Source of the DNA: an uncultured Nitrososphaerota archaeon
GTDB lineage: Archaea > Thermoproteota > Nitrososphaeria > Nitrososphaerales > CADDZS01
Direction of reading: 5' to 3'
Assembly (NCBI GenBank): GCA_963799845.1
Contig: CAWCYI010000004.1
Span: 1,568,001-1,632,000, forward strand
DNA length: 64,000 nucleotides
Shown in pieces: positions 14,111 through 20,188 of the stretch. Under the pieces are notes generated by a model. That model saw only the letters and a list, made by a program, of their open reading frames with translations, was not told the DNA's origin and did no database searches. The stretch's first letter is position 1. Every line of letters begins with the position of its first letter. A program made the position numbers and the translations under genes.

Positions 14111-14698
14111 CTACTCTTCCTGAAATTCCTGCTTTTCTTCGAGCTCTAGGTAGAGAGTTTCTTTGTGCATGATATCAATGTGGGCGAGGAGTTCTTTTCT
14201 GGTTCGAAAGTTGGAATTACAGTACGGACACTGGTGTCCCTTCAGCGACTCGACTATCGGAAGCGGGGATGAACGCCTTCTTCTGTTTCCGATGATTTGA
14301 GACTGCGTGAGGGTTCCGACAAAAACACCGTCCTCCATCACCGCTAGTCTCCTCATACCGCGGTTGATCATTATTCGCAACGCGTCTTGGATGTCGGCAT
14401 CAGAGTTGATTTTAACGAGCGGTGAAGACATCACTTCCCTGACCCTAGTTCTTGCGACGTCTCGCCCCGCAGCAAGGACCCTTGCGAGCAGGTCCCACTC
14501 CGTCAAGATGCCGATCGGATCGCCGCCGGTTTCGGCAACAATCACGCTTCCCACCTGCTTGTCACGCATTAATTTTGCCGCATCGCGAACGGCATCGTCC
14601 GCATAAACGATCACCGAAGGCTGGACAAATTTGGAAACCGGAAAACGTTGAGTGGAGACCTTTGTTTTCTTCTTCGGCGATTTGTTTCGGACTACCAA
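14111..14698 (-). CDS. CBS-pair protein with C-terminal C2H2 zinc finger
   Basis: Tandem CBS motifs (AAKLM...VGSVIV...GILTEWD; VREVMS.P...MRRLAV...GTLT) followed by CPYC-x12-H-x4-H. Confidence 0.85.
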   Translation of the reverse strand: MVVRNKSPKKKTKVSTQRFPVSKFVQPSVIVYADDAVRDAAKLMRDKQVGSVIVAETGGDPIGILTEWDLLARVLAAGRDVARTRVREVMSSPLVKINSDADIQDALRIMINRGMRRLAVMEDGVFVGTLTQSQIIGNRRRRSSPLPIVESLKGHQCPYCNSNFRTRKELLAHIDIMHKETLYLELEEKQEFQEE

Positions 14699-14814
14699 TT
14701 CAGATCTATAACGTCTTGTCCATTGAATTATTTAACAAAGATAGACGTTTATCATAATTGATAAGAGGACTGTAGAGAAGAACTTGTACATCGTGTAGGT
14801 ATAGGCATCCTAAC

Positions 14815-14839
14815 CAGGATTCATAACATTAGAATCCTG
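14815..14839. terminator. inverted repeat just downstream of the AAA-Lon gene
   Basis: CAGGATTC-ataacatta-GAATCCTG, an 8-bp perfect stem about 25 nt past the stop codon at 14863. Confidence 0.35.
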
Positions 14840-14862
14840 TCGCTGTGAAAGTCGAGTGGCTG

Positions 14863-17625
14863 CTACGAGACGGGCAGATTACCGGCTTCGAGGAACTTTG
14901 CAGCCTGCTCTTTGAGCTTCCTGATCGCTGCGTCCTTCTCGGGATGTGAAACCAGTGCAATCTTCGCTACGTCCCAGAAATCTCTGGCCGGCACTATCTT
15001 CAGGCCCTGCTTTTCAAAGAACGCCTTGTCTTCGGTGCTCACTCCTGAAAAGTTCGCCTCCGGTATGATTATCGTGTCGACTCCATCGGTGTTTAACGCT
15101 GCGACGAACTTGCCCATCCCCTTAAAGTCGAGACCTCCGACCTGAACGAGCTCGCCCTTTGGAGTCACTCCCCCCGTAATCACTACGTTCGGAAGTACTT
15201 TCTCCTTCGCGGCCACAGAGTACTGAGCAAGGGTGATTGCGGCTCCGGCGCTGGGTCCCTGGATCACCTGCGTGTCGAGACCCTTGGCAAACGTGATAAA
15301 GTCAAGGAAGAACTCGTGGTTTCGCATCGACCAGTCGCACTCCTCGTTCAAGAATACTCTTGCGTGCTCGGCACTCGCCCGGACAGATTTCGCGATTTCG
15401 CTTCCGATGACAAGAGATCTCCCTCTCTTTCCATACGGGTTGCACACGCATTCGATTACCGCGACGGTTCCCTCCGAGGCCATCCCGCCACTCCCGGTGC
15501 TAGCCAGAGCGGCCAGACCGTAGACCTTTCCCACTGCCGGAACCGGGTTTGGACCCCTTAGGGCGGAAGCGATCTTCTGGATCTCCTCGACCGATTCATC
15601 CCTCATTGAGGCGACCGCCGCCTGAAAGTGCGAAATCGTAAGCTTATACGATTCGGGGGTGATATCTTTCAGATTGTCGAAATTCTGCGGGGCAAGGGGT
15701 GACTGCGGCGCGAACCCGAGGTTTGCCCTGACCCTCGTCAAATCATCTTCGTAGATCTTCCGCAGTTTATTGAGCTGAGTTCCATCATCTGAAGGAACGT
15801 GCGAAATCTTGTAAGCCGCATTGAGCTCCTTGAGCCGAAGCTCAATCGCGTCGCTGATCACCCTTTCGATTTTTGCAGGAGTGAATGTCCGCTTTCCAAA
15901 TAGCTCCAGTATTTTTTCCTCGGTAACGGAGGCATCGATGAACGACCTGCACTTGTTGAGGTGCACCTTAATTATCTCGAGTCTTTCGGTATCATTTCGT
16001 GGAGGCGGTACCTCCACGATTCTGTCAAATCGACCCGCGCGGAGAAACGCCTCATCGACGAGCTGCAGCTTGTTCGTGGTTCCTATTACGACGACGCCTT
16101 CGAGGGGTTTCAATCCACCCATCTCGGAGAGGAGGGTTGTCACCGCGCCCAGGCTTCCGCCCAACTCCCTTTTCAGTGTCAGAGCGTCAAGCTCATCGAT
16201 TATGATGATCGACGGCGCGTTCTTTCGCGCTTCATCGAAGATGTCGATGATGATTTTCTCGGTCTGACCATGATACGGCTTTACTATCTGCGCGCCGCGG
16301 ATCATGTACATCGTAGCTTGCAGCTCGCCGCCGATTGCCTGCACCAGCCACGTCTTGCCGGTTCCCGGATGTCCATGGAGAAGCACTCCCCTGATCGGAG
16401 TTGCACCGGCGCGCCTGGACATTTCCGGATTTAGCGAAACTTCGATATCTTTCAGGAGGTTTTCCTTGATTCCAGAAAGACCGCCGACGTCGTCCAGAGT
16501 AATCTTCGGCTTGATGCGCGTGACGATGTGACGCATTTCGTCGCTCCGCTTGTCCTCGTTGTATTCCTTGAGACGGCTTATCTCCCTGAAATCTTCCAGA
16601 GTAACGCTCAGCTTCGGACTCTCATCCTTGCCGAGGGCGCTCGAGAGTTTTTTCAGGTACGAAGACCTGACGAGCTTTGTCTTGTTCTCCATGACGATCT
16701 GGAACGCGTTCGAAATATCGGCGGGGGTGACAGTGCCGTGCCCCAGCGCGCGTACTTTCGCCTCGATTGTTTGCAGCACGCTGTTTGCGTCGAGGTTCAC
16801 CTGATACTTTTCGAGGTTCTTTCTCGTGATCTCTACCAGCGTCGGTCGATCAATTTCCGAATCGAGATCTATCGTCCCGGAACTGCCGCGACGCCTCACT
16901 GCCTCGATGACCGAACCGAATTCATTTGTTGCGAGTATCAATATGCATCTGCGATCCTGGTAGACCATTTCGTTGATCTTCTCCAGCAAGGTAGTTTGAA
17001 CGCCCCTGAACGCCTGAACGCCGCTGTCGGGAGCGCCGGATGAATCTCCCTGTTCCCTTGCGAGAGTCTGGGCTTCGTCTATGAACAGTATTGTGGGACG
17101 TTTGAAAGCTTCGTCAAAAACCTGCGCGATCTTTTTCTCGGACTCGCCGAGCCATTTGTCAAAAATCTTGTGGGGCGAAACGAGCTGCGCGTAGACCGGA
17201 ACTTCCTTTTCGGCTCCCTTGTTGTACGCCTCGACCATAACCGAGTGCACCAGCGAGGTTTTTCCCGTGCCAGAGGATCCTTTAACGATGAACACCTGCG
17301 GCGGTGCCGTGGGGCAGATTTTCCGAAAGCCCTCGTCCCTTACTACCCAGTACTGGGCGGCTGAAAGAATTTCATCTTTGACTTCGTTGTAACCGACATT
17401 ATTTTCGCACAGCTTGGAGAACGGGGCGACGGTCGAGTGCGCGTCTAGCATCTGCTGCCGGAGCATCTTCCTCGAAAGTTTCTTTTTGGACCTCGTGGAT
17501 TCGAGGTACCATTTTCTGTACTCCGAGTCGGACGCCATCAGAAGCGGATGGTACGCTGTCCTGAGTATCCTGGATTTCTTCCACCAGCTGTCGTCTTCCG
17601 AGTCTCTCGATGGTATTACGCTCAT
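14863..17625 (-). CDS. tandem classical AAA+ ATPase fused to a C-terminal Lon (S16) protease domain
   Basis: D1: GSSGTGKT, KWLGE, ILFIDE, ATN...RRR. D2: DDVGGL, GHPGTGKT, PYHG, IIIDELD, TTN....DEAFLRAGRFD. C-terminus: GKVYGLA, QGPSAGAAI, ITGGVTPKGELVQVGGLDFK, IIIPEAN. Confidence 0.92.
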   Translation of the reverse strand: MSVIPSRDSEDDSWWKKSRILRTAYHPLLMASDSEYRKWYLESTRSKKKLSRKMLRQQMLDAHSTVAPFSKLCENNVGYNEVKDEILSAAQYWVVRDEGFRKICPTAPPQVFIVKGSSGTGKTSLVHSVMVEAYNKGAEKEVPVYAQLVSPHKIFDKWLGESEKKIAQVFDEAFKRPTILFIDEAQTLAREQGDSSGAPDSGVQAFRGVQTTLLEKINEMVYQDRRCILILATNEFGSVIEAVRRRGSSGTIDLDSEIDRPTLVEITRKNLEKYQVNLDANSVLQTIEAKVRALGHGTVTPADISNAFQIVMENKTKLVRSSYLKKLSSALGKDESPKLSVTLEDFREISRLKEYNEDKRSDEMRHIVTRIKPKITLDDVGGLSGIKENLLKDIEVSLNPEMSRRAGATPIRGVLLHGHPGTGKTWLVQAIGGELQATMYMIRGAQIVKPYHGQTEKIIIDIFDEARKNAPSIIIIDELDALTLKRELGGSLGAVTTLLSEMGGLKPLEGVVVIGTTNKLQLVDEAFLRAGRFDRIVEVPPPRNDTERLEIIKVHLNKCRSFIDASVTEEKILELFGKRTFTPAKIERVISDAIELRLKELNAAYKISHVPSDDGTQLNKLRKIYEDDLTRVRANLGFAPQSPLAPQNFDNLKDITPESYKLTISHFQAAVASMRDESVEEIQKIASALRGPNPVPAVGKVYGLAALASTGSGGMASEGTVAVIECVCNPYGKRGRSLVIGSEIAKSVRASAEHARVFLNEECDWSMRNHEFFLDFITFAKGLDTQVIQGPSAGAAITLAQYSVAAKEKVLPNVVITGGVTPKGELVQVGGLDFKGMGKFVAALNTDGVDTIIIPEANFSGVSTEDKAFFEKQGLKIVPARDFWDVAKIALVSHPEKDAAIRKLKEQAAKFLEAGNLPVS

Positions 17626-17642
17626 TTCAAATTCACCAAATG

Positions 17643-18386
17643 CTACGGCTTTTGCCTTCTTGACCTGAACCCGAAGTAGGACTTGATGACTGCAAATCCC
17701 GCAAAATACGACACGATCACTACACCGACGAACAGGATTCCAACTTCAATCATAGCGATTATCGACAAAAAGAACAGCCCTCCGTAGACCAGTTTCTTGC
17801 TAAATTTCATGCCGGCAATCAGCAGCACGACCGAGAACACCGCAAAAATTGCAAGGAAGTCGGTCGCGTTGATTGTGATGCCTCCGAGGCTTATCCCCGT
17901 GAATCCGAAGAGAGGGTTCCAGCCAGAGGCCTCCGATACTGGTTGCGGGAGAACCGTAACTGCAATATCCAAGATCAGATTTCCCGTGCCCGTGACGTTC
18001 TTCATCCAGGAATCTGCAGGCGAGCTCAAAACGTCCATGTCAGCATAGTTCAGAGTCGAGGAAGAAACGTTCACGACCATCGAGTAATTCGCGGTTTGGA
18101 CCGGAGTGAACAGAAGATCGGCCCTAGTGCCCGATTTGTAGAGCCCGAGATCATACTGGCCACCGGTAAGGGAAAGCACACTAACGTTGGACGTCGCGGG
18201 GACTATAATCCTCAATACCTGCGAGGATGTGAGGTTGACGCTAATTACCGGTGATTCAGGCGGCAGGTAAGTACTCGAACTCCCGAATGCAAAATGAGCG
18301 GGCATTGAGGGAAAAACCAGCACTGCCCCAAAAATTAGTATCAGTGATGCAAAATTCCGGTTGTTTTTTGGAAAAATTGCGTTCAC
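17643..18386 (-). CDS. exported, membrane-anchored hypothetical protein
   Basis: Signal-like N-terminus (likely start GTG 18386; ORF track gives 18500), a beta-rich S/T/N-rich domain and C-terminal TM helices. Ends 17 nt before the AAA-Lon start. Confidence 0.7.
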   Translation of the reverse strand: MNAIFPKNNRNFASLILIFGAVLVFPSMPAHFAFGSSSTYLPPESPVISVNLTSSQVLRIIVPATSNVSVLSLTGGQYDLGLYKSGTRADLLFTPVQTANYSMVVNVSSSTLNYADMDVLSSPADSWMKNVTGTGNLILDIAVTVLPQPVSEASGWNPLFGFTGISLGGITINATDFLAIFAVFSVVLLIAGMKFSKKLVYGGLFFLSIIAMIEVGILFVGVVIVSYFAGFAVIKSYFGFRSRRQKP

Positions 18387-18538
18387 AGATGGAGCAGCAG
18401 TCTCACAACTCGCTATATCGAAATATATAGTTACTTCACTTTGAATCCAGATCTCAGCTCCGAATCGTTTCGCTGCCATCTTAATATAATTCAGATCCAA
18501 TTTTCGACCAGACCTTTCGCGAAGCTGGTTTCGTCAAC

Positions 18539-19186
18539 TTGGTTGATCTTTTTACAATTCTTGATCTTACCAGCGCGTTTGCAGTAATCATTCCCGGAGT
18601 AGTGCTGCTCACTCTGATCCGGGGAGTAAAAGTCGCATCCCTCCGGAACATGACAATAATGCTCGCGGCGTTCGGAATACTGCACGGATTCTATCATTTA
18701 TCATACCTGACACCATACTACGATTACGCGCCTTACCTCGACCTCGCAACTGCTCTAATTCTCGTAATGCTCGGGATGTACTACAGCAACCGCACGATTG
18801 CATTCTCTCTATTCCTTTTGACGCTTCCCGAGACGGCAACCTACCTCGTCCCGGTGACACTCATCGTCGCTTTCATCCTATTTGCAAGACTCGCGCTAAT
18901 CTCCAAGAGCATGAGGACCCTCCAGGCCCAACTTTCAATCTTCATCATTATCTGGATCGTGGCGGAGCTTTTGAGGTCTCTGCTGCTGTTGAACGTATTT
19001 TCCGCATCTGCATGGCTTCAGACCCTGGGGCTAGAAATCCACACCGCGGCGATGCTCGCGTTCGGTATCTTCATGCTGTCCCGATACTACAAAGCCACCA
19101 CAAGCTCGAGCAACAATTCTCCGGAATGGCTCGCCAAAGAAAACACCATCCCGCCGAAAAAAGATGGGGGCAAGAGCCCGCATTGA
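18539..19186 (+). CDS. multi-pass membrane protein
   Basis: About six hydrophobic helices with intramembrane His residues (LHGFYHL, EIH). No recognised family. Confidence 0.75.
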   Translation: MVDLFTILDLTSAFAVIIPGVVLLTLIRGVKVASLRNMTIMLAAFGILHGFYHLSYLTPYYDYAPYLDLATALILVMLGMYYSNRTIAFSLFLLTLPETATYLVPVTLIVAFILFARLALISKSMRTLQAQLSIFIIIWIVAELLRSLLLLNVFSASAWLQTLGLEIHTAAMLAFGIFMLSRYYKATTSSSNNSPEWLAKENTIPPKKDGGKSPH

Positions 19187-19579: not shown

Positions 19580-20188
19580 TTGTCACAACCGTCGAAATCC
19601 AGATTGCGACACCTTCGGGTACTGATCTATTTCATTCCGATATTCGCAATCATTGCGGGTTACGGCGTTATTGTTGTCGCAACTCAGGAGAACTCACCAT
19701 TCACGATAGTGACCGGAACGAGCATGCAACCGACGATCCTGCCCGGCACAATCGCGCTGATCGATAAGGTTCCGTTCGATCAGCTGAAGCTGGGGGACGT
19801 AATCGTTCACACTACGCAGCTTTCCCTGCAGTCTCCGTGCGACAGCTCGCCGGCCTCTACCCTAACCGGGGAGGTATCCAATCCGTGCTATGTGATCCAC
19901 AGGATAGTCAACATAGGTACTGATGCCAGCGGCAACAGAATCGTGACGACGAAGGGCGACGACAATTCCTACTCGATTCCGGAGATTGACACCGGCATCA
20001 ACCAGTCGATGTACCTCGGGAAGGTCATACTCCAATTCCCGCTCTTGGGCTACGTCACCGAGCAGCCATACAACGAGGTTATCGCCCTCATAATATTCAT
20101 CGCATTGATAGCCGAACTTTTCTTCGAGAGAAGACAGATGTCTTCGAAAAAGACAGAGACCGAAATTCGTCCTGACCCTGCGAGTTAA
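19580..20188 (+). CDS. sec11: signal peptidase I, archaeal/ER type (S26B)
   Basis: TM helix, then VTGTSMQPT (Ser), GDVIV, VIHRIV (His), TKGDDN and P.LGY. Confidence 0.9.
   Translation: MSQPSKSRLRHLRVLIYFIPIFAIIAGYGVIVVATQENSPFTIVTGTSMQPTILPGTIALIDKVPFDQLKLGDVIVHTTQLSLQSPCDSSPASTLTGEVSNPCYVIHRIVNIGTDASGNRIVTTKGDDNSYSIPEIDTGINQSMYLGKVILQFPLLGYVTEQPYNEVIALIIFIALIAELFFERRQMSSKKTETEIRPDPAS

Follow-up and report, generated by a model that had tools for sequence, protein, structure and literature searches.

Which kind of protein arises when two AAA ATPase modules and a Lon-type peptidase domain are joined in a single chain is the question raised by a locus of an uncultured Nitrososphaerota archaeon (assembly GCA_963799845.1, contig CAWCYI010000004.1, positions 1,568,001 to 1,632,000). 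The whole 64,000-nucleotide stretch that was analysed, hereafter the window, encodes on its minus strand, at 14863..17625, a protein of 920 amino acids (aa), P0001, here called the protease. A first description made from the letters alone (the sequence-only reading) had presented it as a Cdc48-like double AAA ring fused to a Lon protease domain and as a possible new, self-contained ATP-dependent protease. Domain matches, relatives, residue conservation and recurrence all supported the idea that a tandem unfoldase of classical AAA type has here been combined with a Lon protease. We consider it likely that the protein belongs to an uncharacterised family of ATP-dependent serine proteases, tethered to the membrane via a partner encoded by the gene directly upstream.

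The open reading frame (ORF; 14863..17625, stop codon included) starts with ATG and proved, as had been claimed, uninterrupted over its whole length. A Pfam scan returned the anticipated succession of AAA, AAA and Lon_C: PF00004 matched over two stretches (E 1.2e-54, the best one at residues 414-540) and PF05362 over residues 698-892 (E 4.4e-13, 49.7 bits against a cut-off of 21.1). The chain begins with a helical region (residues 1-75; 17401..17625) bearing the conserved motif WW..(x)..LR..YHPLL (W14, W15, R22, P27), followed by AAA module D1 (about residues 76-355; 16561..17400), AAA module D2 (about residues 373-675; 15601..16509) and the Lon S16 peptidase domain (about residues 696-895; 14941..15540), all on the minus strand. 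The limits of D1 and D2 are approximate and were taken from the secondary structure of an AlphaFold2 (AF2) model, which was built from a 44-sequence alignment and reached a mean predicted local distance difference test (pLDDT) of 78.8 and a predicted template modelling score of 0.47. A script located every motif at the residues that the sequence-only reading had given. D1 contains the Walker A motif GSSGTGKT (116-123, with K122), the pore loop KWLG (K157-W158-L159-G160), the Walker B motif FIDE (181-184, with D183-E184), the arginine cluster of RRRG (244-247, with R244-R246) and a lid motif, VTLEDF. D2 shows GHPGTGKT (418-425, with K424-T425), the pore loop YHG (Y451-H452-G453), IDELD (476-480, with D477-E478), the sensor-1 residue N518 and DEAFLRAGRFD (524-534) with the Arg finger R532, and its lid has a helical insert. 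The peptidase domain has a Pro-Ser (A-type) centre, GPSAG (790-794), with the catalytic nucleophile Ser792 (codon 15250..15252), and further on GGLDFK (830-835), ending in Lys835 (codon 15121..15123), and a second lysine, Lys839 (codon 15109..15111), within (M)GK-(F/I)-(V/E)-AA.

Two absences had also been noted correctly. The Cdc48 N-domain families PF02359 and PF02933 were not among the best 25 of 36 Pfam families for the protease ORF, the scope to which all Pfam absences of this protein given here refer; both families were present in the true Cdc48 proteins listed by the same protein search. Residues 1-75 are not a Cdc48 N-domain: residues 19-73 were modelled as helices, and in an alignment of 61 family sequences W15 was kept in 55, R22 in 57 and P27 in 50. 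No transmembrane (TM) segment was apparent either, the highest 19-residue Kyte-Doolittle mean across the chain being 0.98, as computed with our own simple window rather than a dedicated TM predictor.

Both AAA modules look active from their conservation in the same 61-sequence alignment, on which all the family counts below are based. In D1, K122 was invariant (61/61) and D183 (60/61), E184 (58/61), R245 and R246 (59/61 each) nearly so, with an aromatic residue at pore-loop position 158 in 57 sequences, G160 in 59 and N234, at the sensor-1 position, in 44. In D2, K424, T425, G453, D477, E478, N518 and R532 were each present in all 61. The second region of homology of AAA proteins comprises a polar sensor-1 residue and one or more Arg fingers, and in D2 it is represented by N518 and R532 within TTNKLQLVDEAFLRAGRFD. 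The best solved relatives of the protease were VAT, Cdc48 and p97, both in the whole-protein search (E 4e-77, on D2) and when D1 was searched by itself (E about 1e-21), and Foldseek with the AF2 model likewise placed p97/Cdc48 chains first (about 635 columns, E 8e-31). In NCBIfam no curated model reached its cut-off with the protease ORF; the top ranks were CDC48, PAN, FtsH and CdvC, and the Lon models covered the C-terminal peptidase part only. The AAA modules thus do not group with the ATPases of LonB or BrxL, and D1 and D2 belong to the classical AAA clade by their Walker A and B motifs, second region of homology and nearest relatives.

The fusion recurs far beyond the window. In a protein search with precomputed Pfam annotation, 62 of the 120 clusters among the matches listed combined PF00004 with PF05362 by our own count. 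Nearly all of these were 850-1010 aa long, with identities of 28-96%; their sources, where named, were Nitrososphaerales, Thaumarchaeota, Bathyarchaeia or Thermoproteota, and called them only 'AAA family ATPase' or 'SpoVK/Ycf46/Vps4 family'. When 1.84 billion proteins were searched with a profile of the linker and Lon part, 20 representatives came out at E <= 1e-30, and 17 of 23 scanned hits carried AAA twice plus Lon_C. The ESM Atlas lists, besides two archaeal clusters with 110 and 118 members, a bacterial one made up of 1140-aa AAA/Lon_C proteins. The species representatives belonged to Nitrososphaerales/Nitrososphaerota and Promethearchaeota/Hodarchaeota (domain content confirmed for four of them), and 1010-aa forms of the protease were found in Asgard archaea. 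Among genomes of the same family the gene was present in 7 of 12 (6 of 11 if the unpublished genome G001 is left out); in one more family of the order it occurs at 31% identity, and a phylum sample gave matches at E <= 1e-60 in 57 of 401 genomes, the window's own included, mostly full length and 32-38% identical. The distribution in this sample is uneven: one family has the gene in 16 of 17 genomes, a second one of the same order in 0 of 56. The suggested search for taxonomic spread has in this way extended the AAA-AAA-Lon_C architecture across Thermoproteota genomes and Asgard archaea.

That no such family had been recognised was borne out by full-text searches of open-access papers and bioRxiv, in which no description of the architecture was found. 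It is not among the Lon architectures in the part of a 2008 survey on which we draw (PMC2605481), nor does the scheme of A, B, C and BA Lon subfamilies, as far as it is laid out in the corresponding part of PMC9569914, include a type II classical AAA plus S16 combination; a paper on the evolution of the Cdc48 family (PMC5070193) does not mention Lon. We conclude that the family is real and conserved, and apparently uncharacterised.

A claim that calls for correction is that of self-containment, now doubtful because a membrane-protein gene is conserved directly upstream of the protease, on the same strand, in 19 of the 20 related loci overall. In the window this partner gene lies at 17643..18500 on the minus strand; its longest ORF has 285 aa, and translation probably begins further in, for a product of about 230-278 aa. 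The spacer between the partner stop and the protease ATG (17626..17642, minus strand) is 17 bases long and includes, 8 bases before the ATG, a GGTGA that may serve as ribosome-binding site; together they suggest an operon of partner and protease. The partner opens with a hydrophobic segment, continues with a beta-sandwich ectodomain of some 100-140 aa and closes with hydrophobic helices and a basic tail (TM calls for partners were made with a simple hydropathy window). Its AF2 model (pLDDT 76.8) showed an N-terminal helix, strands at 46-145 and helices at 173-243, and a fold search with it gave only generic Ig-like/beta-sandwich and long-helix matches (best Z 7.0), a common arrangement. Its homologues formed 31 clusters, all 'hypothetical' and without Pfam families, and a Pfam scan of five partner and neighbour membrane ORFs returned no family.

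A homologue of this partner, 28-59% identical, was found directly upstream in 4/4 same-family loci with upstream sequence (L030, L031, L032, L033); the loci L035/L007 of G001 were left out of this count and show the same arrangement. In a clade whose proteases carry an additional BSP domain (L036, L039, L040, L041; protease 26-31% identical), the upstream ORF measured 423-441 aa and had the same layout of hydrophobic segments in 4/4 loci. Of 12 further loci from the phylum sample, 11 carry upstream, on the same strand, an ORF of 124-408 aa that has hydrophobic segments at both termini and ends between -53 and +91 bases relative to the protease start. Across clades, what is conserved in the partners appears to be position and topology. 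In both full-length Asgard loci (L037, L038) about four hydrophobic helices head the protease chain itself and precede KPWW...LR, so that the WW motif, which stands at the protein start in the window protease and in 12 further loci, comes after the fourth TM helix in the Asgard form.

The partners of loci L069-L075, from several other Thermoproteota clades, share a conserved tail, ...G(I/L)AKWRGW(Y/F)E(L/N)(I/V)DEE(E/D), an acidic sequence that is a candidate docking peptide for the protease. The L072 partner, of 124 aa, keeps this tail and is devoid of the outside domain, and the window-clade partner has a basic tail instead of the acidic one.

Turning to the peptidase domain, its best solved match was the P domain of Methanocaldococcus jannaschii LonB (1xhk, E 5.9e-07), followed by human and bacterial LonA. 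The catalytic-site residues are conserved throughout the family, S792, G830 and G831 in 61/61 sequences and P791 and T817 in 60/61. The sequence-only reading had also picked out a lysine at +43 from Ser792, and the position is exact, with K835 there. The catalytic role is another matter: position 835 is K in only 22 of the 61 sequences, while 32 have R there and the remaining 7 a different residue or a gap, whereas K839 is present in all 61. Distant members read GGLDYRGMGKIEAAL and show GKIEAAL at the lysine segment, where GKIEAA mirrors the EKIEAA of M. jannaschii LonB. Given this invariance and likeness, K839 is the likely catalytic lysine, preceded by an insertion of four residues, and the +43 spacing of K835 would be a coincidence of the window's clade. 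In the part of PMC9569914 used here, Pro precedes the catalytic Ser in LonA and Asp in LonB, and exactly 42 residues separate Ser from Lys in each Lon subfamily. With K839 the separation from Ser792 is 46 residues, and 42 is obtained only with the poorly conserved K835; should K839 be confirmed, it would constitute an exception to the rule of exactly 42 residues given in that part of the source.

We also placed the Lon domains in a tree of 151 rows, made of 30 labelled family rows (near-identical ones having been thinned) and 121 other Lon_C-bearing representatives. All 30 family rows fell within one clade of 42 rows, with a support of 97 in the Shimodaira-Hasegawa-like approximate likelihood ratio test (SH-aLRT); the remaining 12 rows of this clade were mostly short fragments, the intein-bearing P0142 or proteins unlabelled as family. 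The 15 Asp-Ser (LonB-type) rows formed a group apart from the family clade (SH-aLRT 93). The sister group of the family Lon domains comprised P0168, P0183, P0189 and P0244, some of them 1027-1145 aa long; P0168 showed Lon_C only, at E <= 1e-6, when scanned, and the set may correspond to the bacterial Atlas cluster of 1140-aa AAA plus Lon_C proteins.

Whether the AAA modules descend from Cdc48 was addressed by a quick IQ-TREE analysis of 68 modules, with SH-aLRT support, in which D1 and D2 of 16 family members and of 17 Cdc48 proteins (four from the window's genome) were accompanied by one other AAA protein of that genome and one bacterial LonA as outgroup. The family D1 modules came out as a single clade (SH-aLRT 100) whose branch is long, at 2.54, and Cdc48 D1, Cdc48 D2 and the other AAA row of the genome clustered together (SH-aLRT 92). 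The family D2 rows lay outside this Cdc48 group, their monophyly being neither supported nor contradicted, and the LonA module formed an outgroup branch of length 4.5. 'Cdc48-like' is consequently apt for the tandem classical-AAA design and not for descent, as the modules are not nested in the sampled Cdc48 D1 or D2 clades; within these rows, which include no named PAN, FtsH or Vps4, the protease does not appear to be a derived Cdc48. The same sub-clades (the Asgard pair, the BSP pair, P0057 with P0060 and a core group) were repeated in the D1 and D2 parts of the tree, which fits an old fusion that appears to have been inherited as a unit.

The protease shares with Cdc48/VAT, which work with the 20S proteasome, and with p97 the tandem classical AAA modules, Walker A and B motifs, aromatic pore loops and Arg fingers; they are its best matches in sequence and fold, and hexameric threading is presumably common to all. 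It differs from Cdc48 in having no double-psi-barrel N domain, in scoring only 214.9 bits against the Cdc48 model TIGR01243 (cut-off 802.65), in the position of D1 and D2 outside the sampled Cdc48 clades and in its C-terminus, which in Cdc48 is a tail docking on the separate 20S particle and here a covalently fused Lon peptidase. The HbYX motif is the docking motif for the proteasome; for comparison, the protease ends in ...AGNLPVS.

Archaeal LonB (MEROPS S16; M. jannaschii, A. fulgidus, T. onnurineus) resembles the protease in uniting an ATPase and an S16 peptidase in one chain, and, according to the part of PMC4343526 on which we draw, it is membrane-associated with its catalytic domains toward the cytoplasm, as proposed here for the protease. 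LonB, however, has one Lon-type AAA+ module with an inserted membrane anchor, whereas the protease chain has two AAA modules of the classical type and lacks an anchor. The LonB_AAA-LID family (PF20436), found in the true LonB P0148, was not detected in the protease, and the Asp-Ser centre with 42 residues from Ser to Lys (the same part of PMC9569914) contrasts with a Pro-Ser centre and, if K839 is the catalytic lysine, 46 residues. With bacterial and mitochondrial LonA the protease has in common a soluble chain, the Pro-Ser (A-type) centre and the C-terminal S16 domain; neither the LON N domain (PF02190) nor Lon_lid (PF22667) was found in it, though the bacterial control L043 had both, and it likewise differs from LonA, with its single Lon-type AAA+ module. 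Like FtsH, it has a classical AAA module fused to a peptidase, at the membrane in the reading proposed here, and the FtsH order of TM helix, outside domain, TM helix, AAA and protease resembles that of partner and protease read together. FtsH, by contrast, has one AAA module, an M41 zinc peptidase and its anchor in the chain, as opposed to two AAA modules, a Ser-Lys S16 peptidase and, in this clade, a separate putative anchor gene; no M41 domain was detected in the protease, and the FtsH model TIGR01241 aligned with its AAA part only (model positions 152-376 of 598, 172.7 bits against a cut-off of 600). The BrxL families BrxL_ATPase (PF13337) and BrxL_N, both seen in the true BrxL P0163, were not found in the Pfam scan, nor was BrxL in PADLOC. 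ClpA and ClpC with ClpP are alike in that a two-tier (type II) AAA+ unfoldase feeds a serine protease chamber, but they belong to another AAA+ clade and use a separate ClpP tetradecamer, not a fused Lon domain. By the features that define them the protease is none of Cdc48, LonA, LonB, FtsH or BrxL, and it carries those of a classical AAA protein and of an S16 peptidase. In its presumed action it resembles the self-compartmentalising AAA+ proteases.

Several observations nevertheless weigh against one part or another of the proposed reading. The window protease itself has no hydrophobic segment, the L036 partner has no detectable sequence similarity to the window-clade partners (hhalign probability 0.1%), and at L067, one of the 12 further loci, there is no adjacent partner. 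The loop with the catalytic lysine is poorly modelled (pLDDT 59 for residues 831-840), and pairwise phmmer alignments set the gap so that K835 faces the LonB lysine; since the model is of low confidence here, it is conservation that carries the assignment to K839. Finally, the gene was not found in 5 of the 12 same-family genomes, one of them 96% complete, and many complete genomes of the order are without Lon_C, so that replacement of LonB would be at most a partial account.

The first three of these points are what recommends the best-surviving alternative, in which the protease acts by itself as a soluble, ATP-dependent enzyme of the cytosol, the upstream membrane gene being unrelated in function and the partners of different clades sharing no detectable homology. 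We regard it as unlikely, because the membrane ORF holds its place upstream across clades, down to about 31-38% protease identity, because partner and protease are separated by short spacers or overlap and because in Asgard archaea the TM helices are part of the same chain, directly before the conserved WW motif. Less probable still, and very much so, is an unfoldase or segregase with a non-cleaving Lon-like domain that would provide only a platform for oligomerisation. Lon-like domains without protease activity are on record, as in RadA and ComM in the literature excerpts on which we draw, the Lon_C score is modest, and the spacing of Ser and Lys does not match the 42 residues in between that the same part of PMC9569914 reports; yet S792, K839, G830 and G831, along with P791 and T817, persist at identities down to about 27%, as would be expected under selection for catalysis.

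An anti-phage or conflict system, similar to BrxL of BREX or to the IetA ATPase with its protease, could be invoked on account of PADLOC matches to IetA (E 1.8e-36), TRIP13 and AbiO and of an NCBIfam match to the anti-phage ATPase IteA (E 5e-31). We consider it highly improbable: the IetA, TRIP13 and AbiO matches reflect the generic AAA core only and rank below CDC48, PAN and FtsH, PADLOC gave neither BrxL nor any other Lon-like defence protein, and BrxL appears among the distant Lon_C matches as a separate protein type (P0163). Moreover, the neighbours are of housekeeping type and syntenic in relatives (signal-peptidase-like, CBS and amino-acid metabolism genes), and the near-universal occurrence in some families (16/17) is unlike that of patchy defence islands. 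An assembly chimera of a Cdc48-type gene and a Lon gene, in favour of which nothing was found and to which we give next to no probability, is refuted as far as sequence data allow by a Logan contig of 4254 bases from a separate assembler, which spans 14800-17790, and thus the whole ORF, with 0 differences, no joints and no loose ends, by the recurrence of the architecture in 62/120 clusters among the matches listed, from several sources and in many independent assemblies, and by full-length single frames in many genomes. The contig comes from a soil metagenome run (four runs of one soil study were listed and the contigs of three compared with the window) that may be the window's own source sample, so it stands for the agreement of two assemblers and not for an independent organism.

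We therefore return to the membrane-tethered protease, whose working may be envisaged as follows. Six chains, each with a short helical N-terminus, D1, D2 and a Lon S16 domain with the presumed catalytic pair Ser792-Lys839, would assemble into three stacked rings, by analogy with Cdc48/VAT and Lon. The pore-loop aromatics W158 of D1 and Y451 of D2 would pull the substrate through a central channel while ATP is hydrolysed at both modules, and the unfolded chain would enter the Lon chamber and be cleaved. The gene is probably co-transcribed with that of the membrane protein directly upstream, which, we propose, anchors the protease by its D1 face on the cytoplasmic side of the membrane, and the pair may act like FtsH or archaeal LonB in quality control and turnover of membrane and membrane-near proteins. 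What was observed is the domain architecture, the conservation of the catalytic residues and of the fusion, the pairing of the genes and the hydrophobic, TM-like N-terminal segments of the Asgard forms; the hexamer, ATP-dependent proteolysis, binding of the partner and the nature of the substrates are inferred.

As to what this would mean, the part of PMC4343526 cited above recognises only the proteasome and LonB as ATP-dependent proteases of archaea, and it describes FtsH as absent from them, its role being thought to be taken by LonB. If our reading is true, the family adds a third archaeal ATP-dependent protease beside those two. We incline, somewhat hesitantly, to the broader view that it represents a third class of archaeal energy-dependent protease, three-tiered, with an interchangeable membrane anchor and a counterpart of FtsH. 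A similarly slight preference applies to the anchor taking the form of a separate upstream gene in Thermoproteota and of fused TM helices in Asgard archaea, with a BSP domain added in some lineages. Its spread in Thermoproteota (57/401 genomes) and reach into Asgard archaea bear on membrane proteostasis in the lineages nearest eukaryotes, and the protein offers a natural experiment in which a Cdc48-type double motor has been joined directly to a protease chamber.

In the window's genome (4.6 Mb, 86.7% complete) the 920-aa protease was the sole Lon_C match, canonical LonB was not found, and there were four full Cdc48 genes and five proteasome-subunit matches. Within the order, Lon_C was detected in 16 of 41 genomes, and several complete genomes had none, a patchiness which suggests that the protease is accessory and not a universal component. 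In the window's genome (G000), a Cdc48 match contained an in-frame TAG (G000:C6:86577-88599) and a Cdc48-like gene was split into frames of 354 and 471 aa (G000:C6:1183956-1185875), beside three intact Cdc48 genes.

Some family members depart from the common form. The chains of the BSP clade, from marine Nitrososphaerales, are AAA-AAA-Lon_C-BSP proteins of 1120-1163 aa (L036:4030-7389, L041:1256-4744, also L039 and L040; P0126) with a BSP peptidase domain (PF04450; E 8e-15 and 4e-13) at the C-terminus, so that two different peptidase domains stand behind one double motor. The family member P0142 (1261 aa) has an intein (Intein_splicing, LAGLIDADG_3; about residues 569-876) after the D2 AAA core, and inteins likewise occur in the canonical LonB representatives P0148 and P0156. 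Two otherwise full-length orthologue matches, G059:C13:78368-81052 and one in G001:C414, contain a single in-frame TAG, which could be a sequencing error, a pseudogene mark or a site of read-through. The archaeon isolate B6 (G008) carries two copies of the gene (L033, L034), whose Lon parts are 67% and 63% identical to that of the query; contig ends interrupt the second copy.

Around the protease and its partner lie three further ORFs of the window. Directly downstream of the protease, at 14111-14698 on the minus strand, a 195-aa protein combines a CBS pair (E 4.6e-23) with a weak C-terminal match to a C2H2 zinc finger (E 7e-4), an unusual pairing; this gene was not beside the protease in the related loci compared. 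On the other side, on the plus strand, a 215-aa hydrophobic ORF without a Pfam family (18539-19186) lies between the partner and a signal-peptidase-like ORF (19580-20188) with weak S24/S26 matches (E 6e-4 and 3e-3), which is syntenic in L030 (80% identity) and L031 (46%).

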